A stretch of 64,000 nt of DNA, taken from Planctomycetales bacterium (GTDB lineage: Bacteria; Planctomycetota; Phycisphaerae; SM23-33). The notes below the pieces were generated by a model. The model saw only the letters and a program-made list of their open reading frames with translations, had not been told where the DNA came from and searched no databases. Within the stretch, counting starts at the first letter, position 1, and each line of letters starts with the position of its first letter. The stretch lies in contig JAUWNJ010000001.1 in assembly GCA_030612725.1 (NCBI GenBank), forward strand, positions 134,648 through 198,647. Reading direction: 5' to 3'. Made by a program: the position numbers and the translations under genes. This document shows positions 2,617 to 64,000 of this stretch, piece after piece.

Positions 2617-3473
2617 TCAGGACCTGCGCCTGCGTAACATTGCCAGCCCGCCGATAGCCAGAAGCGACAGGCTCGCCGGTTCGGGAATGACTGCGACCCA
2701 GGCCTCAGTGTTACCACTGGGGTTGGTCCCGGTGCCCACGATGGTCGTCCCGTCGGTGGATACGCCTGTTGCCTGGGTCAAAGTCCAGCCGGTAAGGTCC
2801 ACGCCCAGGTCCGTCAGTACATCCATGAGGCTTCTCATGCCTTCGTCGGCATCCCAGACGAACGCCTCGGAGCCCGAGGCCGAGGTGCCCTGCCCGACCA
2901 CGACAGACCCGTCGGCAGAGACGCCTTTCGCCTCGCTGGAGAAATCGCCGCCCGGCAGGTCGCCCAAGCCAACCATCCCCCCGCCCGCCGTCCAGCGGAA
3001 CGCCTCCCAGCCCGATGCCGAGATGCTCCTCCCGACCACGACAGACCCGTCGGCAGAGACACCAAGCACCCAGCTGTAGAACTCGCCGCCCGTCAGGTCG
3101 CCCAGGCCAACCATCCCGCCGGCCGCCGTCCAGCGGTACGCCTCCAGGCCCGAGGCCGAGGTGCTCCCCCCGACCACGACAGACCCGTCGGCAGAGACGG
3201 CATACGCGCTGCTGGAGAAATCGCCGCCCGGCAGGTCGCCCAGACCGACCATCCCGCCAGCCTGCGTCCAGCGGAACGCCTCAGGACCCGAGCCCCAGTT
3301 GCCTGTCCCGACCACGACAGACCCATCGGCAGAGACGCCATACGCACAGCTCCAGAAAACACCGCCCGGCAGGTCGCCCAGGCCGGTAAAACTCACCGCC
3401 GCTGAGGCCCGCCCGGCCAAGACGCCCATCAGTATCACCGCCAGTAACAAAACAATCCACTTGCGCTCCATGT
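2617..3473 (-). CDS. PEP-CTERM sorting-domain protein with four internal repeats of about 42 aa
   Basis: Starts MERKWIVLLLAVILMGVLAGRASA (the ORF-track Met at 3651 lies further upstream; the internal Met at 3471-3473 gives a signal peptide). Repeats GLGDLPGGxFxSxAxxVSADGSVVVG. C-terminal PEPASLSLLAIGGLAMLRRRRS is a PEP-CTERM motif plus TM helix plus basic tail. Confidence 0.7.
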
Positions 3474-8036: not shown

Positions 8037-8252
8037 ATGGCAAAGAAGAAAGCCAAAAAGAAAGCCACGAAGAAGAAGGTAGCAAAGAAGACGACGACGA
8101 AGAAAAAAGCAACAAAGAAGAAAGTAGCAAAGAAAAAGGTAGCGAAGAAAAAAGTGGTAAAGAAAAAAGTGGTAAAGAAAAAAGCCACGAAGAAGAAAGT
8201 GGCGAAGAAAAAAACCGCAAAGAAAAAAGTAGCGAAGAAGAAAAAGAGATAA
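8037..8252 (+). CDS. Lysine-rich histone H1-like nucleoid protein
   Basis: MAKKKAKKKATKKKVAKKTTTKKKATKKKVAKKKVAKKKVVKKK... (about 45% Lys, tandem KKKAxKKKVA repeats). GGAGG sits 6 nt before ATG 8037. The upstream region 7700-8030 is AT-rich. Confidence 0.7.
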   Translation: MAKKKAKKKATKKKVAKKTTTKKKATKKKVAKKKVAKKKVVKKKVVKKKATKKKVAKKKTAKKKVAKKKKR

Positions 8253-12983: not shown

Positions 12984-13097
12984 TGATTTATTTCCGTTTT
13001 CAGAATGGGTGGCACAATCCCCAAGAGATTATGCCACCCGCTTTCTAAAGCCGGCAGATGAGCGGCGCGAATCTGCCGGAAACGATTTCAAGCCGTC

Positions 13098-16706: not shown

Positions 16707-16744
16707 GGGTTATGTCCTGATAATAGTAGCCGGTAGTCAGTAGT

Positions 16745-16908
16745 AAAATCCGAATGTCGAATATCGAAATGCGAAACAATATCGAATCACCGAAATACGA
16801 ATTTTCAAAACGCCGTCCGGAAACTCCTGCCGTTATTGTTTTGAACATTTGAATTTTGTATTTCGAATTTGTTTCGGATTTCGTGCTTTGGATTTCGGAT
16901 TTTTTCAC
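16745..16908. repeat. AT-rich imperfect palindromic element of about 165 bp between feoA and feoB (copy 1)
   Basis: Arms built from AAATCCGAA/TTCGGATTT, CGAAACAA/TTGTTTCG and TTCAAAAC/GTTTTGAA. Homologous to 19250-19418 at roughly 75% identity. Confidence 0.6.
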
Positions 16909-19249: not shown

Positions 19250-19418
19250 AGCAAAACCGAAATCCGAAGCACGAAATCCGAAACAATATTGAATGACCAA
19301 AATCCAAATTCTCAAAACTCCTCCTCTAACAGGTTTCGACGAGATTGTTTTGAAAATTCGAATTTCGGATTTAGAATTTGTTTCGGATTTCGATATTCGG
19401 ATTTCGGATTTGGGCGCA
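19250..19418. repeat. AT-rich imperfect palindromic element (copy 2) upstream of cinA
   Basis: AAAACCGAAATCCGAAGCACGAAATCCGAAACAATATTGAATGACC ... GTTTTGAAAATTCGAATTTCGGATTTAGAATTTGTTTCGGATTTCG. Confidence 0.6.
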
Positions 19419-19946: not shown

Positions 19947-20435
19947 ATGAATTACCTGAAAAAATGTCTCTGCCTGGTGTTTCTGACCGGCGTAATGGGC
20001 GGGTGTGAAGTTGTCTCGCCTGTTTACAGGCAGAGTACTGGTGGTTATCTCGGTGCGGACATTACGCCCAAGAACACCTGGAGCGTTCGAGGCGATCTTG
20101 CCAATCCCGCTGCCGCTGCCGATGAGGATATTTCCACTGCCGCTCGCAGCAACTACGGTTATACAGGGGCAGAATTGATAATCGACCTGAAGAAGGTCTG
20201 CCTCTTTCAGACCGTTATCCTCGAGCACGGAACCGCCAAAAGCGGGCACTGCCGGGAGGTCGATATATCCACTGGTGTGGACGGTAAAAATTTCAGCAAA
20301 AAACACGTCGCACCCGGAACACGTCGCTTTACGATCATTTCGCTACCGGCTCCGACGCTCGCGAGATACGTTCGCATCAAGGCCGTCAGTCCCGGAAGAG
20401 GCCGATGGTACATCGCGGAGGTTTATATACAGTAG
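19947..20435 (+). CDS. Lipoprotein with an F5/8 type C (discoidin)-like domain
   Basis: Lipobox LTGVMGGC. The C-terminal ARYVRIKAVSPGRGRWYIAEVYI is typical of discoidin/carbohydrate-binding domains. Confidence 0.5.
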   Translation: MNYLKKCLCLVFLTGVMGGCEVVSPVYRQSTGGYLGADITPKNTWSVRGDLANPAAAADEDISTAARSNYGYTGAELIIDLKKVCLFQTVILEHGTAKSGHCREVDISTGVDGKNFSKKHVAPGTRRFTIISLPAPTLARYVRIKAVSPGRGRWYIAEVYIQ

Positions 20436-20454
20436 GGACTTGGGACTAGGGACC
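20435..20454. repeat. GGGACTTGGGACTAGGG motif, also found at 45138-45168
   Basis: It overlaps the stop of the preceding gene. A single CAATCCG-like unit (AAATCCGCAATCACC) follows. Confidence 0.5.
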
Positions 20455-20583
20455 AGGAACCAGGCAACAGAATAAAAAGCAAAATCCGCAATCACCTGGC
20501 CCCTCTCGCCGCACCCGACGCCGAGCAGCGCATCGCCCGTAGTTTGGGTGAAAAAAGCGTTCAGCGTTCTTTTTTTATCTTTT

Positions 20584-25848: not shown

Positions 25849-25863
25849 CGATTAGTAGTAGTA

Positions 25864-25945
25864 TGTAGGCTGGGACGGAGCAAAGCGGAGTCCCACCTTT
25901 TTGCAGCGAGAAAGGTGGGACTCCGCTTTGCTCCGTCCCAGCCTA
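25864..25945. repeat. Perfect 36-bp-arm palindrome (hairpin) between two same-strand genes
   Basis: GTAGGCTGGGACGGAGCAAAGCGGAGTCCCACCTTT-ttgcagcgag-AAAGGTGGGACTCCGCTTTGCTCCGTCCCAGCCTAC. Half-copies occur at 38437-38462 and 9763-9778. Confidence 0.7.
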
Positions 25946-26815: not shown

Positions 26816-26904
26816 AGCACTAAAACCTGTGCATGATAGTAGCGTCTAACCCCATCCGATGTCAAAGCCGACGGATAGCTATCCGTCGGCTTCGGTGTCC
26901 TTTA

Positions 26905-28446: not shown

Positions 28447-31440
28447 TCACTTTACTACCAGATTTACCAATCGGTCCGGTACGACGATTTTCTTGATGAT
28501 TGTTTTTCCTTCAACGGCGGCTGCGACTTTTGGCTCGGCCAGTGCGGCGGCGATGATTGTTTCTTCGGCGGCGTCGGCGCTGACGGTAATAAGTCCACGC
28601 ATCTTACCGTTGACCTGAACGGCCAGTTCGACCGTATCTTCAACCAGCAGCGATTCGTTATATTCCGGCCAGGGTTCGTAAGTCAGCGATTCGTCGTGCC
28701 CCAGTTTTTGCCAGAGTTCTTCGGCCAGGTGCGGCGCGAACGGCGCAAGAACCAATAAGAACCGCCCAGCCTGGCCCTTCGAAATCGCACCGGCCTTGAA
28801 AACCACGTTGACAAATTCCATCATCGCGGCAATTGCGGTGTTGAACTTCATGGCCTCGATGTCGTCGCCGGCCTTCCTGATGAGTTTGTGCAAGGCACGC
28901 TCGACTTTTTCGTCGCCGGCTTTGTCAATCAGTAACGATTGAATATCCTCACCACCCGCTATCATTCGCCAGACTCGATGCAGGAAGCGATGCACGCCGG
29001 GCACGTCGCGGGTGTTCCAGGGTTTGGAGGCCTCCAACGGCCCCATGAACATTTCGTACAGGCGGAAGGTGTCGGCTCCGTATTCGGCGATGACTTCGTC
29101 GGGGTTGACGACGTTCTTGAGGCTCTTGGACATTTTTTCGACGGATTCTGCCAGGACTTCGCCGGTTTGCCTGTGTACGGGTTTGTCGCCGGAGGTGTTC
29201 ACGTCCTCGTATCCGACGCAGACGCCGCGCTTGTCGCGGTAGGCATAGGAGCGGATCATGCCCTGGTTGAAGAGTTTTCCGAACGGTTCAGACCCGGAGA
29301 CATAGCCAAGGTCGAACAGCACCTTGTGCCAGAATCGCGAGTAGAGCAGATGCAGCACGGCATGCTCGGCTCCGCCGACGTAAAGGTCAATGCCACCGAT
29401 TGTGGATTGCGGATTGCGGATTGCGGATTCCTCGCTCGGCGGTTTCATCCAGTACTTTTCAACATCACTATTGCAGAAGGATTTGTCGTTTTTCGGGTCG
29501 AGGAAGCGGAGGTAGTACCAGCACGATCCTGCCCATTGCGGCATGGTGTTGACTTCACGTTTTGCAGGCCCGCCACAGGACGGGCAGGTGGTATTGTTCC
29601 AATCGGTCGCCTTTGCCAACGGCGGAGCCGGCGGGGCGTCGGGGTCGTCGCTGGCCGACGGGGTGAAGTCGTCCATCTCCGGCAACTTGAGTGGAAGTTG
29701 ATCTTCGCCCAGCGCGACCGTTCCGCACTTCTCGCAGTGGATAATCGGGAACGGCTCGCCCCAGTACCGCTGCCGGCTGAAGAGCCAGTCCCGCAACTTG
29801 TAATTCACAGCCGCCTGACCAAGCCCCTGCTCGTCAAGCCAGGCGGTAATCTTCTTCTTGAACTCCGCCGTCGTCATGCCGTCATACGGGCCGGAATTGA
29901 CGGCGATGCCATCGCCGGTGAAAGGCAACTTCTCTAGTACAATATCACTTCCCTCCAAACCAAAATCCTGCAGGAGACTTTCTATCTGCCGCTTAGGACC
30001 CCTAACCGTCATTTGGGAAGAGTCACTACTGATTGAGCCTCCAAGATAATATTTTTGTTGAACCAGACTTGGGCTACCTTTCTTTGAGAAAAAGATTCTC
30101 CTGTCAAAGGAACAATTATAACTTTCAACAACCCGTATAATTGGAAGATTAAACGCACCCGCAAATTCGTAGTCTCTTTCGTCGTGGGCCGGGACAGCCA
30201 TTATCGCGCCGGTGCCGTAACCCATCATTACATAGTCAGCCACCCAGATAGGAATTTTCTCGTCGTTGACCGGATTAATCGCATAAGCGCCGGTGAAGAC
30301 GCCGGTTTTTTCCTTCGTATCAGCGGTGCGGTCGAGTTCGGATTTGTGGGAGGCTTCTTGTACATACCTGTCAACCGCATCTCGCTGCTCGTCGGTGGTA
30401 ATCTGCTCTACCAGCGGATGCTCCGGCGCGAGGACCATATATGTAGCGCCAAACAAAGTATCGGGGCGTGTGGTATAGACTCTTATAACTTCATCATTAC
30501 CCACAACAGTAAAATCAACATCGGCCCCCTCGCTTCTACCGATCCAGTTTCGCTGCATAATCTTTATCGACTCAGGCCAGTCGAGTTCGTCCAGCCCTTC
30601 CAGCAGGCGGTCGGAATATGCGGTGATGCGGAGCATCCATTGCTTGAGGTTCTTGCGATAGACAGGCCAGTCGCCGCGGTCGGATTTGCCTTCGTTGGTA
30701 ACTTCCTCGTTGGAAAGAACCGTCCCGAGTTTCGGGCACCAGTTGACCGGAACCTCCGCCATGTACGCCAGGCGGTATTCGTCAATCAGCCGGCGCTGCT
30801 GGTCGGGGGCAAGTTTCTGGAACTTCCTCTGGCCGTAGGCGACGCCCTCCAGACTTATGTTTGGAATCCGGTTATAGGGAGCCACGGGGACGACGTTTCC
30901 GCCTGCATCTACAGCCAGTTCGCCGGAAAAGAGTTTGTCAATCAGTTCCTCGATCGGCCTGGCTGCGTCGGCGTCCGGGTCGTACCAACTGTTGAACATC
31001 TTCAGGAAAATCCACTGTGTCCAGCGGTAGTAGTCCGGCTCGGTCGTAGCCAAACGGCGCGACCAGTCGTAACTGAAGCCGAACATCTTTATCTGACGCT
31101 CGATGTTGGCGATGTTGGCAGCCGTGGTTTCGCGCGGGTGGACGCCGTGCTCGACGGCGTATTGTTCCGCCGGCAGGCCGAAGGAATCGTAACCCATCGG
31201 GTGCAGGACATTGAAACCCCTCATCCGCTTATAGCGGGCGACAATGTCGGTGGCAGTGTATCCTTCCGGGTGTCCGACGTGCAGGCCTGCGCCGGACGGG
31301 TACGGGAACATGTCCAGGATGTAGAACTTGGGCTTATCGGCGAAATCCGCCTCATCCGGGTTAGGCTGGACGAAAGTCCCGTTTTCCTGCCAATACGCCT
31401 GCCACTTCTTCTCAATTTCCGTAAAATCGTATTTTTCCAT
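28447..31440 (-). CDS. leuS: Leucyl-tRNA synthetase
   Basis: HVGHPEGY (HIGH motif), KMSKS, and editing and anticodon-binding domains. Start taken at MEKYDF (31440) rather than the track's upstream alternative start. Confidence 0.9.
29401..29430. repeat. (CGGATTG)x3 / (CAATCCG)x3 heptamer repeat, in-frame inside leuS
   Basis: TGTGGATTGCGGATTGCGGATTGCGGATTCC encodes [10 protein letters not shown] on the minus strand, inside a roughly 15-aa insertion relative to canonical LeuS before the GG.EH region. Confidence 0.75.
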
Positions 31441-31789: not shown

Positions 31790-32060
31790 GCCTATCCAGG
31801 ATGATAATTGTTTAGTCCCGAAGGGACAAGGGATGGTAGCCGTGGGCGTCAGCCCACGGACATCGGTGATACAACAACTTCAGCCCCGGAGGGGCGCCGG
31901 AAAACTCGCTAATAGACTTCCACTCGTCATACGTTCTTTCCGACGTCCCTTCGGGACTAAATTTTTCCGGCCTTTCTCCGGGGGCTTACGCCCCCGGCTA
32001 CTGTCCTCCGGCCCTTCGGGCCTGTGATAGGTTACGGTAACCGAAAGGGCCGCCGAATGT
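31790..32060. other. Hairpin-dense non-coding region of about 270 nt: candidate structured ncRNA or REP cluster
   Basis: AGTCCCGAAGGGAC and GTCCCTTCGGGACT are mutually complementary 130 nt apart. There are also local hairpins GCCGTGGGCGTCAGCCCACGG, CCGGGGGCTTACGCCCCCGG, GGCCCTTCGGGCC and GGTTACGGTAACC (tetraloop-like UUCG/GNRA). Confidence 0.35.
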
Positions 32061-32085: not shown

Positions 32086-32643
32086 TTACAGCATCCCTTC
32101 CTGTTTCGCGTAATCGAACACTCCTCCGGCTGCGATGATTGGTCCGACGTCGCCGAGCGGCGATAGGTCGAATTGCTCGGAAGTTCGCAGGTTCTTCAGC
32201 ACGGCAGCGGCAGTGTCTATCTCGATCTCGTCGCCGGTGGTGAATTTTTCCACCAGGCGATTCGGCGTCTCGAACGGTACGAGGTATCCGCCGTTGACGC
32301 TGTTGCGATAGAAGATTCTCGCGTATGACTGGGCCACGACGACTGATACGCCCGCTTCGGCCAGCGCCAGCGGCGCATGCTCGCGTGACGAGCCACAGCC
32401 GAAGTTTTTACCGGCAATAACCACGGTGAATTCGCTGGCGAATTCGTCGCCGACGACAAATGGGATGTTCCCATCGGGCAGACCCGACTGCGTCGGCGGG
32501 ACGCCGATGAGGGCGTACTTTCCGAAATACCTGCGTTCGTCCGCGTCGGCGGGGTTGTAGGAAAGATACTCGGCTGGGATTATCTGGTCGGTGTCGATGT
32601 TGTCGCCGAGAACAAACACCTTTCCGCGAATGACATTTTCCAT
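32086..32643 (-). CDS. leuD: 3-isopropylmalate dehydratase small subunit (LeuD-like, short type)
   Basis: IDTDQIIP, GCGSSREHAP, YARIFYRN; no adjacent leuC. Confidence 0.7.
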   Translation of the reverse strand: MENVIRGKVFVLGDNIDTDQIIPAEYLSYNPADADERRYFGKYALIGVPPTQSGLPDGNIPFVVGDEFASEFTVVIAGKNFGCGSSREHAPLALAEAGVSVVVAQSYARIFYRNSVNGGYLVPFETPNRLVEKFTTGDEIEIDTAAAVLKNLRTSEQFDLSPLGDVGPIIAAGGVFDYAKQEGML

Positions 32644-32700
32644 ATTTTTATCCTTTCGATGGTTCGCAGGTATTCTATCGCATGGTGCAGTGTTCCGAAA

Positions 32701-32770
32701 GGTTAGAGGTTAGAGGTTAGGTTCCGCGATAGTGAGCGGTTGTCTGTTTTCTCACCTCTCACCTCTCACC
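32701..32770. repeat. (GGTTAGA)x3 followed by (TCTCACC)x3: imperfect inverted tandem heptamers
   Basis: GGTTAGAGGTTAGAGGTTAGG ...34 nt... TCTCACCTCTCACCTCTCACC. The arms can pair 8 of 9 positions. Further on, the GGAGGGAGACCT motif is duplicated (32795-32806 and 32845-32856). Confidence 0.5.
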
Positions 32771-33061
32771 TTAAAAAAAGGGCGACACCCAGGCGGAGGG
32801 AGACCTGAGAATCGCCCCTACTTGCCGCAACCCTTGGTGCAGGTGGAGGGAGACCTACACCTTAAGTGGGTGCGGCGGACATTCGCGACAATAACGCCTA
32901 TCCGATTTTTCCGATTATTACATTACTACGTTATTCTTCGACAAAACCGAAGAAAATTCTTGAGAATTTTTTTCGCCTCGCGTACCTTTCCCATCAACTT
33001 TAACGATTTTGCCGGTTTATAGTTCTGATCTTCAGCCTGTTTTTTGTTCGTTCACTCGCTA

Positions 33062-38057: not shown

Positions 38058-38346
38058 CGGAACAGGCCCGGCGGGTGGCGGCGGACAAGGTAGCGGACAA
38101 GGTAGCGGACAAGGTGGTAGACAAGGTGGTGGACAAGGTGGTGGACAAGGTGGCGGACAAGGTGGCGGACAAGGTGGCGGACGCGGACGAGGACAGGGAC
38201 GCGGACGAATGGGCGGACCATTTGCCGCAGGAGCAGGCGGAGATTGCGTCTGCCCGAATTGCGGGCACAAGGCCCCACATGTGGCCGGTCAACCCTGTAA
38301 TCAGCAGTCCTGCCCGAAGTGCGGTGCAACAATGGCCAGAGGCTAA
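38044..38346 (+). CDS. DUF5320-like small protein: MPRGxGTGP N-terminus, (GQGG)n repeat, C-terminal double CPxCG zinc ribbon
   Basis: MPRGNGTGPAGGGGQGSGQGSGQGGRQGGGQGGGQGGGQGGGQGGGRGRGQGRGRMGG...GDCVCPNCGHKAPHVAGQPCNQQSCPKCGATMARG. An AAGGTGA RBS sits 7 nt upstream. The start overlaps the DUF89 gene by 14 nt. Confidence 0.5.
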   Translation: MPRGNGTGPAGGGGQGSGQGSGQGGRQGGGQGGGQGGGQGGGQGGGRGRGQGRGRMGGPFAAGAGGDCVCPNCGHKAPHVAGQPCNQQSCPKCGATMARG

Positions 38347-44092: not shown

Positions 44093-44884
44093 ATGAAATC
44101 AGGAAAGTGTGCGAGTAGCATGTGTGAATCGGAGAAAGTCGCAATCGATAGCCCCGGCGAATCGCCGTTTGGCGGTTTATCATTGCTGGGCCGATTCGGC
44201 AGGCTGTCTGTTGTTACGCTGGTGGTTTCGAATCTGATCCCCCTGTTCGGGGTGATTTTTGCGGGGTGGCGAGTGTTTCCCATCATGCTGCTCTTCAGCC
44301 TCGAAAATATCATTATCGGATTCTACAACGTTCTCCGCATGTGCATGGCTCCCTGCGACCTCGAAGAACTCGAAAGAACAAGTGAAGGCATCCACACCAA
44401 ACAGGGATTGATACTTTTCTTTTGCGTCCACTACGGCATGTTCGTTTTCGGGCACCTGTTTTTCGTAATCGTCTTTTTCGGCCTGGCTGGATTATCCGGG
44501 GGCGAACACCAGACAGGAACAACAATCTCGGTATCATGGGAGGACGCTGTTGCTACCGGCGAGCCTCTGGTTACAAATTGGTGGGGACTCGGCATCGCGT
44601 TTGTAGCCTGTTTTATCAGCCACGGGGTCTCCTATGTGAAGAACTTCATCGGATCCGGCGAATATAAACGGGTAACTGCCAACAAACTGATGATCAGACC
44701 TTATGGTCGGATGATCGTTCTGCACATTACGATAATCTTCGGCGCTTTCCTTGTAGTATCTACGGGAACGCACGTTGCCGCCATTGTGCTTCTGGTCGTT
44801 CTGAAGTTGATTCTGGACCTGGCTGGACACCTGTACGAGAGGAAGAAGTTTCGTCAGCGTACCCAGGGGGAAATACCGGGATAA
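44093..44884 (+). CDS. Hypothetical polytopic membrane protein
   Basis: Five or six TM helices; no known motif. Start uncertain. Confidence 0.4.
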   Translation: MKSGKCASSMCESEKVAIDSPGESPFGGLSLLGRFGRLSVVTLVVSNLIPLFGVIFAGWRVFPIMLLFSLENIIIGFYNVLRMCMAPCDLEELERTSEGIHTKQGLILFFCVHYGMFVFGHLFFVIVFFGLAGLSGGEHQTGTTISVSWEDAVATGEPLVTNWWGLGIAFVACFISHGVSYVKNFIGSGEYKRVTANKLMIRPYGRMIVLHITIIFGAFLVVSTGTHVAAIVLLVVLKLILDLAGHLYERKKFRQRTQGEIPG

Positions 44885-44973
44885 TATCGGGCCTGTTGCG
44901 GATGCCGTGGGGAAACCCTTCCTGAAACTCAACTGGTACAGTTTTTGGGGGGCAGACCACCTTGACCGCGCTG

Positions 44974-45112
44974 CGTTCGCGTTTGCGCGCGCAAAGGCGA
45001 ACGTAAAAATCAGGGTCACGAAAAATTCCAAAAAAACTTTTCCCAAGGCCGCCAAGGACTTATGGCGTCGCTATCCGTTTTGTGTTCGCCTTTGCGCGCG
45101 CAAACGCGAACG
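44974..45112. mobile_element. MITE-like unit of about 140 bp bounded by two 30-bp quasi-palindromes that are exact reverse complements of each other
   Basis: CGTTCGCGTTTGCGCGCGCAAAGGCGAACG (44974-45003) and GTTCGCCTTTGCGCGCGCAAACGCGAACG (45084-45112). The 80-bp core is AT-rich. Confidence 0.4.
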
Positions 45113-45137
45113 GAAAAGATAATATAGAGAACAGATA

Positions 45138-45168
45138 GGGACTTGGGACTAGGGTTTAGGGACTAGGG
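45138..45168. repeat. GGGACTTGGGACTAGGGTTTAGGGACTAGGG, second locus of the GGGACTTGGGACTAGGG motif
   Basis: Identical 17-mer to 20435-20451; an AACAGAA...AAAA tract follows at both loci. Confidence 0.6.
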
Positions 45169-45193
45169 AACAGAAGAAAAGAAAAATAGATGA

Positions 45194-45296
45194 ACCAATC
45201 AACCAGTCAACCAGTCAACCAATCAACCAATCAACGGATTAACCGGAATACCGGAATACCGAGGGATCCGCAATCCGCAATCCACAATCCGCAATG
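45194..45296. repeat. Composite microsatellite block: (CAACCARTx5), (CCGGAATA)x2, (ATCCGCA)x4
   Basis: CCAATCAACCAGTCAACCAGTCAACCAATCAACCAATCAACGG...AACCGGAATACCGGAATACC...GGATCCGCAATCCGCAATCCACAATCCGCAATGG. Confidence 0.75.
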
Positions 45297-45410
45297 GCAC
45301 TCTGGGCCGTTTAGGCAAGCCAGGCAATGGTGGATTTTTTGAAATGGGCGAAAAAATGACCCCGAAAATCGTAACTGCTTGCACGCCAAGGATTTGCGGA
45401 TTTTGGAAAC

Positions 45411-45515
45411 TTTCCCAATTGTTCCCAATCGTTCCGAATCGTTCCCAATCGTTCCCATTTGTTCCCAATCGTTCCGAATCGTTCCGAATTGTTCCGTTTC
45501 GTTCCGTTTCGTTCC
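45411..45515. repeat. About 10-11 tandem copies of a 10-mer (TTCC[CG]AAT[CT]G)
   Basis: TTCCCAATTGTTCCCAATCGTTCCGAATCGTTCCCAATCGTTCCCATTTGTTCCCAATCGTTCCGAATCGTTCCGAATTGTTCCGTTTCGTTCCGTTTCGTTCCGG. Confidence 0.8.
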
Positions 45516-45547
45516 GGTTAAAGGCGCTGCTCATTTGGGACGGACCG

Positions 45548-46363
45548 TTACCGTTCCGGTGCGAAGAGTTCGTCCATCTTCGCAGCCACGTCGTCTGCCT
45601 GCATGAGCGTCTGTCCTATCAGGACGGTATTGACGCCCGCGTCGGCCAGACGCTTTGTGTCGGTTCGCGTCTTGATTCCCGATTCGCTCACGAGCACCGT
45701 CCGATCGGGGACAAGTTCCGCCAGCCTGAGAGTCGTGGCGATGTCCGTCTCGAATGTTGTCAAGTCGCGGTTGTTGATTCCGAGCAAACTATAGGATGCG
45801 TGCGGGAATCCGATCATCGACCGGATGCGCATGAAGTTGTCTGGGTTGTGGGTTTCGACCAGGCAGGTGAGTTTCAGCGAAGCAGCAAGTATCATCAGGT
45901 CGGTCAGTTCGCCGGGCGTGAGGCACTCGGCTATCAGGAGTATCGCGTCGGCTCCGGCGACTCGACTTTGGAGAACCTGGTACGGGTCGATGATGAAGTC
46001 CTTTCGCAGGACGGGAAGGCTGACTGCCTGGCGAACGGCTTGGAGGTCGTCGAGCGAACCGCTGAAGTATTGTTCGTCGGTCAGGACGCTGATGGCGTCA
46101 GCGCCTGCGTCTGCGTATTTTCGGGCGATTGCGGCGGGGTCGAAATCAGCGCAAATCACCCCGGCCGACGGCGAGGCCTTTTTGACTTCGGCGATGACGT
46201 TGAGGAGTTTTTCGCCCTTGCGTGTGCACGCGGAGAAGAAGTTCCGCACCGGCGGCGCGTCGGCGATACCGGCTTGGAGTTGCTCGATCGGACGGCTGCG
46301 TTTGAGGCGGGCGATTTCTTTCCGCTTGGTTTCGACGATTCGGTCTAATATATTCCCAGTCAC
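45548..46363 (-). CDS. trpC: Indole-3-glycerol phosphate synthase
   Basis: IAEVKKASPS, LRKDFIIDPYQ, LIGINNRDL: IGPS signatures. Confidence 0.85.
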   Translation of the reverse strand: MTGNILDRIVETKRKEIARLKRSRPIEQLQAGIADAPPVRNFFSACTRKGEKLLNVIAEVKKASPSAGVICADFDPAAIARKYADAGADAISVLTDEQYFSGSLDDLQAVRQAVSLPVLRKDFIIDPYQVLQSRVAGADAILLIAECLTPGELTDLMILAASLKLTCLVETHNPDNFMRIRSMIGFPHASYSLLGINNRDLTTFETDIATTLRLAELVPDRTVLVSESGIKTRTDTKRLADAGVNTVLIGQTLMQADDVAAKMDELFAPER

Positions 46364-47278: not shown

Positions 47279-47600
47279 AGCAGAAAAAGGAGAAGAGAGA
47301 TAGCGATAATGCGCATAAAAAAAGACTGCCGGTGCGGGGAATCCGGCCTCCTCGCCAAATCTCCGCACTCCAGCAGCCTTTACATAAGTACCCTCTCGTT
47401 TGCCTCTCCAGTAAATCCAGGCAAAGGGTCGATGAGCCTCCCGCCCGGCGGCATGAGCATTGCTCGCTGAGCAGAGTCCATAACTGAACTTATTATACGC
47501 GGAAACGGGGATTTCGTCAAGTGAAATTTGATTTTTCCGGAAATGCGTAGCACGGGCGATGCGTAGCATCACTACGCGAGACGCCCTGTTACTGATGAGG

Positions 47601-57987: not shown

Positions 57988-58229
57988 CCTCAGAGAATCG
58001 TTTTTACGATGGGGATTCTAACCTGACGCTGCGATGAAAGGAAACGCCAAATACGTGCTGGAAAAAATAGCAGGGATACAGGGGATGCAAAGGATAGATA
58101 TTTGTTGTTAAAAAAAAAGAACAAAAGTATTTTATCCCCTGTATCCCTTGCATCCCTGCTAATCTTTCTGCAGATTCGAGTTTGCTCTACTTGCTTGACT
58201 TGAACTGAAGCGACATTGAGAATCCCTGC

Positions 58230-63193: not shown

Positions 63194-64000
63194 ATGAGCA
63201 ATTTACGGGACAATCGATTGGTTAAAACGTTCGCTGACCTTCGTGCTGCGGGCAGGAAGGCGCTTATGCCTTTTTTGACTGCCGGTTATCCGGACCTGGA
63301 GACGACGGCTGCGTTGTTGAAGGATTTCGAGGCTCGCGGCGTGCGGATTGTGGAACTGGGAATTCCGTTTTCCGACCCGATTGCCGACGGACCTACGATC
63401 CAGACCTCCTATACCGACGCGCTTTCCAGCGGCGTTACCAGCGAAAAAATCTTCGATATGGTCCGCTCATATCGAAAATCTTCAAATCCGCAATCCGCAA
63501 TCCGCAATCCGCAATTGGCCTTAGTTGCGATGGTCAGTTATTCCATCGTCTTCAAGCATGGCGTCGAGTCGTATCTTGCCGAAGCAGCCGGTGCCGGCTT
63601 CGACGGAATTATCATCCCTGACCTGCCGCTGGAGGAAGCAGCCGACCTGGAACCGCTGGCGTCCTCAGCCGGCTTGGCCAATGTGATGCTTATCGCCCCG
63701 ACGACCCCGCCGGAGCGCAGACTTGAAATCGCCCGTCACTCGCGCGGGTTTATCTATTACATTTCCATCGCGGGCATCACCGGCGAGCGAGTCCGCCTGC
63801 CGGAGCAGAGCATCCGCACTGTGGCTGAACTTCGCACGCACACCGACACGCCGGTCTGCATCGGCTTTGGCGTTTCCAATGCCGAAACAGTCGCCCACGT
63901 TTGCGAGGTCGCCGACGGCGCGATTGTCGGCTCTGCCATCATCCACCGCATCACCGACGCCAAAGACGCCCCCCGCGACGAACTGGTCGGAAAAGTCGGC
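63194..64000 (+). CDS. trpA: Tryptophan synthase alpha chain (partial; runs off the window end)
   Basis: MSNLRDNRLVKTFADLRAAGRKALMPFLTAGYPDLETT...GVRIVELGIPFSDPIADGPTIQ; no stop before 64000. Confidence 0.8.
   Translation, partial: MSNLRDNRLVKTFADLRAAGRKALMPFLTAGYPDLETTAALLKDFEARGVRIVELGIPFSDPIADGPTIQTSYTDALSSGVTSEKIFDMVRSYRKSSNPQSAIRNPQLALVAMVSYSIVFKHGVESYLAEAAGAGFDGIIIPDLPLEEAADLEPLASSAGLANVMLIAPTTPPERRLEIARHSRGFIYYISIAGITGERVRLPEQSIRTVAELRTHTDTPVCIGFGVSNAETVAHVCEVADGAIVGSAIIHRITDAKDAPRDELVGKVG
63485..63515. repeat. (ATCCGCA)x4 heptamer repeat, in-frame inside trpA
   Basis: AAATCCGCAATCCGCAATCCGCAATCCGCAATTGG encodes [14 protein letters not shown]. It shares the SAIRNPQ peptide with the leuS insertion. 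Confidence 0.75.

Follow-up and report, generated by a model that had tools for sequence, protein, structure and literature searches.

The 663-nt gap (44885–45547) between a DUF6498 membrane-protein gene on the left and a convergent trpC gene on the right, in a genome assembly of a Planctomycetales bacterium (GCA_030612725.1), is crowded with short repeats and raises the question of whether these are independent tandem arrays gathered at one place or the parts of a single element. The stretch of DNA analyzed here, referred to as the window, comprises 64,000 nt (positions 134,648 to 198,647 of contig JAUWNJ010000001.1). Comparison of the gap with other genomes showed that this block represents a single copy of a mosaic intergenic repeat, lineage-specific and 0.45–0.9 kb long, that belongs to an uncultured Planctomycetota clade. 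The composite element spans ~44910–45519, and profile searches with its 5' and 3' units found a single copy of it in the window.

The density of repeats in this gap is far beyond chance. Tandem Repeats Finder (TRF) returned eight rows covering 242 of the 663 nt (36%), ~10 times the window average of 3.4%, whereas 200 dinucleotide shuffles yielded on average 0.135 rows and 2.8 nt (~0.4%), with a maximum of 56 nt. A preliminary interpretation of the letters without database searches (the sequence-only reading) had called this concentration unusual for a high-GC bacterium, and was right on the density, although the DNA is only moderately GC-rich (55.8%). The arrays are, from left to right, TAGGGAC x4.9 (45136–45169), AACCAATC x5.4 (45193–45235), ACCGGAAT x2.5 (45242–45261), ATCCGCA x4.3 (45266–45295) and TTCCGAATCG x10.5 (45412–45516), the last making 11 units when taken in register (45410–45519). 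Two palindromes, GTTCGCGTTTGCGCGCGCAAAGGCGAAC (44975–45002) and GTTCGCCTTTGCGCGCGCAAACGCGAAC (45084–45111), are exact reverse complements of each other, 28 nt each, and enclose an 81-nt core of 43% GC vs. 55.8% in the window; the pair had no match in shuffles of the window even with up to three mismatches allowed. All repeats that the sequence-only reading had listed downstream of trpC were recovered in their places by TRF and by palindrome search.

The same set of repeats is found elsewhere. An exact pattern for the right-hand palindrome (Pal-R), scanned against 185,579 species-representative genomes, matched 27 loci, all of them in two Planctomycetales metagenome-assembled genomes (MAGs), CSMAG_432 and CSMAG_1454. 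A degenerate palindrome pattern was absent from JGI metagenome contigs and from the viral contigs of IMG/VR, which argues that the family is confined to a narrow clade. In the flanks of the Pal-R matches the heptamers, purine tract, 8-mers, ACCGGAAT, ATCCRCA and 10-mers keep their order, and blastn aligned window ~44929–45519 end to end with copies at loci L024 (80% over 565 nt), L025, L012, L019, L008, L022, L006, L001 and L005, in all of which a multiple alignment gave an identical order of modules. The 5' and 3' units were linked in the same orientation, 55–435 nt apart, in ~20 copies identified by profile searches, and the sequence flanking most copies is unrelated. The architecture thus outlined, present at >20 sites in the two related MAGs as well as downstream of trpC in a third genome, consists of an optional module A, a linker, the left palindrome (Pal-L), the core, Pal-R, a trailer, a variable middle, a 3' unit and the 10-mer tract. 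Since this order recurs at non-orthologous sites, including L011 of CSMAG_432 (exactly as in the window), L001, L025 and L024, the five features that had been taken for separate short tandem repeats gathered locally are to be regarded as modules of one dispersed composite repeat.

Module A (44910–44959, plus strand; ..CTGAAACTCAACTGGTACAGTTTTTGGGGGGCAGACCA), which may be a remnant of the end of an insertion sequence (IS) or of a MITE (miniature transposable element with inverted repeats), occurs once in the window; it lies 15–16 nt from Pal-L in ~10 of ~23 copies, with six loci besides the window matching it at up to four mismatches and variants in L012, L019 and L013. Window 44910–45129 aligns with L008 at 87%. 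The left linker CCTTGACCGCGCTGC (44960–44974, plus strand) conforms to a consensus, YTTGACCGCGCTGY, in ~10 copies. Pal-L (44975–45002), a 28-nt GC-rich quasi-palindrome with a (CG)4 center, was not selected by the search pattern, and its outer stem covaries in 21 copies (GTTCAC..GTGAAC vs. GTTCGC..GCGAAC; Fisher p=0.04). It is followed by the strongly conserved core (45003–45083, plus strand), which contains A-tracts and CCAAGGACTTATGG, by Pal-R (45084–45111) and by the trailer GGAAAAGATAATATAGAG (45112–45129, plus strand; consensus GSAAAAGTTAATATAGAG in nearly every copy). The palindrome pair is always present, each member being nearly symmetric in most copies, so that no orientation or strand can be assigned to it there.

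The middle, in plus-strand order, begins with the G-tract heptamer array of ~5 TAGGGAC/TTGGGAC units (45136–45169), in which five G3 runs are separated by 4-nt loops (45137–45167); most copies have an array at the equivalent position, with 0–9 units or with TTGGGCA-type units instead. A purine-rich spacer, AACAGAAGAAAAGAAAAATAGATG (45170–45192), corresponds to homologous (GAAAAGAA)n tracts of variable length in other copies. The 8-mer array AACCARTC x5.4 (45193–45235) is shared, with varying unit number, by L011, L024, L019, L029 and others, and the sub-module of ACCGGAAT x2.5 followed by ATCCRCA x4.3 (45242–45295) is shared by L001 and L025 (x2, x4) and by L011, L023 and L010 (x2, x2). The conserved 3' unit of ~115 nt (45294–45409, plus strand; TTTAGGCAAG.CAGGCAA..GGATTTTTTGAAATGGGCGAAAAAATGACC..GCCAAGGATTTGCGGATTTTGG) has profile matches in 23 copies (E 1e-54 to 1e-41, with the profile built from the copies) at a mean column identity of 82%. 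The 11-unit, 10-bp-phased tract (45410–45519, plus strand) closes the element.

Alignments of these copies show a middle that changes quickly between ends and a 10-mer tract that do not. The orthologous copies L005 and L026 (one per MAG) share 96% identity over the 5' flank and 5' unit and ~88% over the 3' unit, with 11 tract units in each, whereas no alignment is possible between their middle regions and their 3' flanks are different; the L007/L013 and window/L029 pairs behave in the same way, the L029 tract having 11 units as in the window copy. From one copy to the next there are large differences in the number of G-heptamer, 8-mer, ACCGGAAT and ATCCRCA units, a module sometimes being missing altogether, and nested mini-hairpin inserts occur in the middle of some copies. 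The 10-mer tract, on the other hand, has 9–13 units in 17 of 21 complete arrays (most often 11–12) and a constant polarity in all of them, with CCSAAT-type units first, CCGTTT-type units last and an end in ..GTTCCGTTTCGGCCCG. Such a narrow range of unit numbers, equal between orthologs, argues that the tract is not a free-running microsatellite. The recombination or slippage hot spot suggested by the sequence-only reading is therefore borne out for the 7-/8-mer middle, wholly different between orthologs with a 96% identical 5' unit, and not for the stable 10-mer array. Slippage, insertion of mini-repeats and exchange between copies would be plausible routes of turnover in the middle cassette.

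As to genomic position, gene calls (codon-usage caller trained on the window, which recovers trpC and a CPBP-protease gene over shadow frames) show that most copies are situated at the 3' ends of genes, above all in convergent gaps, and that none lies within a called gene. A gene 3' end adjoins the tract side in 15 of 20 copies and the 5' side in 12 of 16 (27/36 in total, p=0.002), a convergent gene pair surrounds seven of the nine copies with both flanks known (p=0.001), and in five copies the tract ends 6–13 nt from a stop codon. In the window, the DUF6498 gene (44093–44884, plus strand; PF20108, E=3.8e-58; codon-usage score 66) points its 3' end toward the element from the left, while trpC, encoding indole-3-glycerol-phosphate synthase (IGPS; 45548–46363, minus strand; PF00218, E=3.9e-84), has its stop codon 28 nt from the 10-mer tract. 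A long plus-strand open reading frame (ORF) at 45344–46348 and similar frames in other loci were rejected as shadow frames of convergent genes.

Orthologous loci reached via TrpC homologs show that vertical inheritance of the trpC copy goes back a long way and that decay or replacement has since overtaken it in some relatives. In L029/L030 (TrpC 86% identical, ~79% DNA identity in flanking genes) the element follows trpC in the same orientation, with 11 tract units and with a derived junction, AAACTTTCCCAA, shared with the window copy. L035 (83%) retains a ~70-nt scar with both element edges, GGAGTCCATCCGTTCAC ... GTTCCGTTTCGTTCCGTATCGGCCCG, and L031/L032 (83%) a weak remnant (E=0.0017). L033 of CSMAG_432 has a PIN/ribbon-helix-helix (RHH) toxin-antitoxin pair in place of the element, and L034 and L036 have no trace of it downstream of trpC; in the closest relative, L028 (92% DNA identity), the contig stops 67 nt past trpC. 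It is this combination of an element at the orthologous site in some relatives with a scar or remnant in others that points to an old copy, later decayed or replaced. Synteny among relatives breaks at the trpC 3' flank, which was different in every one examined (L033 3394–4082; L034 2480–2600; L035 3808–3909): the PIN and FitA-like RHH pair of CSMAG_432 overlaps the trpC stop, PhoU stands at this flank in GCA_964449105, and the element scar in GCA_030667405. A 263-aa neighbor gene in L031, considered as a DUF6498 candidate, was ruled out on testing.

What such an element might do can be approached through its physical features and through known repeats. The 5' unit folds far better than shuffled sequences on both strands (z=-5.6), the other parts ranging from z -0.7 to +1.2 except for the minus strand of the tract (z=-3.3). 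Sequence conservation, dyad symmetry, the (CG)4 center, the A-tracts and an exact 10-bp phasing of GC-rich blocks and AT trinucleotides over ~110–120 bp together point to an element acting at the DNA level or as a simple hairpin. The reading that we favor, at a probability of roughly 55% and by analogy, is that of a lineage-specific resident repeat of the repetitive extragenic palindromic/bacterial interspersed mosaic element (REP/BIME) or BOX type with a DNA-level role at gene ends. The element may first have spread as a non-autonomous repeat; its palindromes would serve as hairpins, cruciforms or dyad binding sites at transcript ends, as REP/BIME precedents suggest, and a topoisomerase, a nucleoid protein or another oligomerizing DNA-binding protein would find bent or wrappable DNA in its phased tract. 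Wrapping of the tract by such a protein would be located where convergent transcription accumulates supercoils.

The REP/BIME precedent is a close one in several respects. Convergent gene pairs are a known location of REPs and BIMEs, which are bound by gyrase and serve as insertion-sequence targets (PMC1525189, PMC3733652, PMC6379681); stabilization of mRNA 3' ends and binding of IHF in addition to gyrase have been described for them as well (PMC3733652, PMC1525189, PMC3333891), and the gyrase motif spans ~130 bp with periodic arms (PMC6379681). The element shares with them GC-rich imperfect palindromes of 20–40 nt (here 28 nt) in many extragenic copies, an apparent inverse pairing of the palindromes around a linker, a mosaic build with other short motifs, a preference for gene 3' ends and convergent gaps, partial conservation of copies at orthologous sites and, possibly, targeting by insertion sequences. 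It differs in its linker, here a long conserved 81-nt core, in the physical linkage of the 5' unit to a ~115-nt 3' unit, a phased tract and a 7-/8-mer cassette (0.45–0.9 kb in total), and in its phylum, and no REP-associated tyrosine transposase (RAYT) was seen beside the copies examined. It also lacks the GTAG or CGTC tag of the REP super-families (PMC3733652), the palindrome flanks in all copies being ..GCTGC/Pal-L/GTAAAAAT and ..TTTTGT/Pal-R/GSAAAAGT.

Other families offer partial parallels. Pneumococcal BOX (boxA, a variable number of boxB, boxC) is likewise a modular dispersed intergenic repeat with conserved ends and variable internal repeats (PMC3049150). BOX elements, however, are shorter (below ~300 bp) and have internal modules of a single kind, compared with several arrays in fixed order and a length-stable tract here. 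To our knowledge, no sequence relationship exists between the two. The heptamer repeats of cyanobacteria, Xanthomonas and Beggiatoaceae (short tandemly repeated repetitive (STRR) sequences; quadruplex-forming GGGNATC and GGGGA(C/T)T; TAACTGA) resemble the present arrays in that period 7 is the commonest class and mostly non-coding, but here the heptamers, of different unit sequences, are modules inside a larger conserved element instead of free-standing arrays. With at least four G3 runs and 4-nt loops, the (GGGACTW)n array is predicted from its letters to resemble G-quadruplex (G4)-forming repeats (PMC4692102), a potential that is not conserved, since some copies have TTGGGCA/TTAGGCA (GGCA-type) units. 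As in MITEs, the element is small, non-coding, multi-copy and intergenic, with hairpin-forming inverted repeats (Pal-L and Pal-R) that bound a short core; these bound only the first ~140 nt, however, and there are no terminal inverted repeats at the composite ends, no target-site duplication could be defined there, and no parent insertion sequence was identified. The label "MITE-like" that the sequence-only reading had given to the palindrome pair is thus apt in the loose sense of a dispersed repeat with an AT-richer core and does not extend to the composite. As the element lacks the defining features of both tagged REPs and MITEs, we file it under neither; by analogy it would be closest to REP/BIME in how it works and to BOX in its modular build.

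Several considerations weigh against the favored DNA-level reading. This role is argued by analogy, and the palindromes carry neither the GTAG nor the CGTC tag that classified REPs have. No RAYT or other transposase adjoins any copy, within the reach of the 64-kb window and MAG pieces of up to 8 kb. The palindromes have no U-runs after them and so are not canonical terminators, and at least one relative (L020) has a normal intrinsic terminator upstream of its copy. The positive wrap of gyrase is not expected to favor a 10.0-bp phase. Furthermore, loci were gathered by an exact Pal-R match, which makes Pal-R look more conserved than it is and skews the sample, and gene calls at these loci come from a crude caller that was checked on trpC, the CPBP-protease gene and the deposited calls of L028–L033.

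The alternative that survives best, unlikely as we consider it, is that the element is purely selfish, a non-autonomous mobile unit (MITE, REPIN or PATE-like) with its transposase elsewhere and of no benefit to the host, for which insertions at gene ends are simply harmless. It would account for the many dispersed copies with unrelated flanks, for the frequent breaking of contigs at copies (~17 of the 27 Pal-R matches lie within ~750 nt of a contig end) and for the patchy presence of the element at the trpC locus among relatives, and the hairpin ends around a short core are reminiscent of the hairpins found subterminally in IS200/IS605 and REPINs (PMC3333891). The structure expected of such a mobile element is nevertheless missing: the composite has no terminal inverted repeats, with no partner at the tract end for its left end, be it module A or the linker, and no transposase adjoins any copy. 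A target-site duplication could not be defined either, as relatives of the trpC locus offer a scar (L035), a remnant (L031) and a replacement (L033) and no clean empty site. Several copies are orthologous at 79–86% DNA identity, which gives no sign of recent movement, and the length and polarity of the 10-mer tract are kept in paralogs and orthologs alike, which would be unexpected for neutral junk. Module A might be an insertion-sequence end, a possibility that favors the selfish element; its 21-aa ORF stub has no Pfam match, and neither an inverted partner nor a full insertion sequence was found. In three CSMAG_432 copies (L018 1–120, L020 7200–7350, L025 2756–2856) module A extends into ~150 nt of shared sequence with a 20-codon ORF stub, MKGKNHSPEQIVRWTISPPSE, without Pfam match, possibly a truncated IS left end beside Pal-L.

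Rather improbable, in our estimate, is a stronger version of the topological role, in which the element is a dedicated module of chromosome topology or architecture between convergent genes that absorbs or insulates transcription-driven supercoiling. Under this proposal a specific DNA-binding protein (topoisomerase, nucleoid protein or ribbon-helix-helix/ParR-like oligomer) would wrap the 10-bp-phased tract of fixed length (~110–120 bp) or form a filament nucleated on it, and the tract would be coupled to the cruciform- or Z-DNA-prone palindrome doublet and the G-tract array, while the variable cassette might tune the module or be a tolerated spacer.

Still less probable is an action of the element as RNA, either as a 3' untranslated part of convergent genes or as a small RNA of its own, with the palindromes guarding 3' ends and the minus-strand tract (CGGAACGAWW)n, which presents a GGA every 10 nt, acting as a platform or sponge for an RNA-binding protein. 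Copies that adjoin stop codons (6–13 nt in five) would be transcribed unless termination occurs inside them, minus-strand tract RNA has a somewhat more stable fold than its shuffles (z=-3.3), mRNA stabilization by REP hairpins is known (PMC3733652), and heptamer repeats have been proposed as S1, Csp or CsrA binding sites in other bacteria (PMC4679880). Against it stand several negative results. No Rfam family matched the gap at its gathering score and nothing credible appeared at E<=5, the best sub-threshold match being the plant microRNA model MIR403 (32.5 bits vs. a threshold of 70), which owes its score to the long hairpin alone. RNAalifold on 23 copies of the 3' unit gave no consensus structure (-0.5 kcal/mol, no covarying pairs), and a scan for terminators found none in the gap. 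The only promoter-like site (45210–45183, minus strand) falls inside the 8-mer array and is not conserved in other copies, and GGA-rich motifs stand on different strands in different modules. Coding by mini-ORFs, namely a 21-codon frame from an ATG in the core and a frame from an ATG in the 3' unit, was rejected, as the start codons are lost in several copies.

A locus-specific slippage or recombination hot spot of independent microsatellites, or an assembly artefact, is highly improbable: the tenfold repeat density and the synteny break at the trpC 3' flank would fit a local hot spot, but the arrays stand in matching order at non-orthologous sites of other genomes and the 10-mer tract is stable between orthologs, while the artefact that the sequence-only reading had allowed for is excluded by the presence of the architecture in four independent assemblies and by unique sequence on both sides of the window copy.

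Beyond the element, intergenic DNA of this lineage is generally built of short repeat modules, the element under study being the largest. Period-7 arrays are the commonest class of tandem repeat in the window (12 of 31 non-redundant TRF arrays, at least 12 sites). Single modules of the element also stand alone: a TAGGGAC array with its purine tract at 20429–20485, and ATCCGCA arrays at 29398–29431 (in opposite orientation, at or inside the start of a long ORF) and at 63484–63516. A second dispersed family (16744–16903, 19253–19411 and the first 66 nt of L028) is made of two inverted AAATCCG/TTCGGAT-type heptamer arrays around a ~45-nt center, the window copies being 77–79% identical. A hairpin with heptamer arms at 1347–1454, in which a GTAGTCA-type array faces an inverted partner (TACCGGC..), is 92% identical to L012 7–109 of CSMAG_432, and at 32698–32772 nearly complementary AGGTTAG x3 and TCTCACC x3 arrays stand ~30 nt apart upstream of the gene at 32086–32643. 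Intergenic modules of 30–110 nt, some of them palindromic, are common to several MAG loci (13042–13082, 25860–25945, 26862–26895 and 58061–58177), that at 26862–26895 having 18 matches in five of them.

Two Acido-Lenti-1 motifs (RF01687; 47 and 52 bits vs. a gathering score of 37) lie inverted, 118 nt apart, in one intergenic region (31814–31859 on the minus strand and 31978–32023 on the plus strand), a MITE-like arrangement; this motif has so far been assigned to Acidobacteria and Lentisphaerae, and is found here in a Planctomycetota genome. Longer tandem repeats occur in apparently coding DNA, namely a 138-nt unit x3.8 (2860–3384), a Lys-rich 15/30-nt repeat (8040–8244) and GGCGGACAAGGT x8.6 (38080–38218). 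The segment at 47305–47547, after the CPBP-protease gene, is 90–91% identical to L028 and L033 and is probably a small conserved gene missed by the caller, because a 73-aa gene is called there in L028.

Overall, what is known of Planctomycetota genomes comes mostly from MAGs, and there is hardly any description of their non-coding DNA; our full-text searches turned up no account of the element, or of REP/BIME-like repeats of such architecture in this phylum. Short-read assemblies are interrupted at many sites by the family, which also marks breakpoints of synteny and may be usable as a strain-typing marker, as in REP- and BOX-PCR. By analogy, it would carry the REP/BIME concept over to a distant phylum in a differently constructed form. 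Its most intriguing and most testable feature is the length-stable 10-bp-phased tract, which keeps its length and polarity while the neighboring arrays churn and thereby offers a concrete candidate for a site of protein wrapping or DNA bending where convergent genes end.

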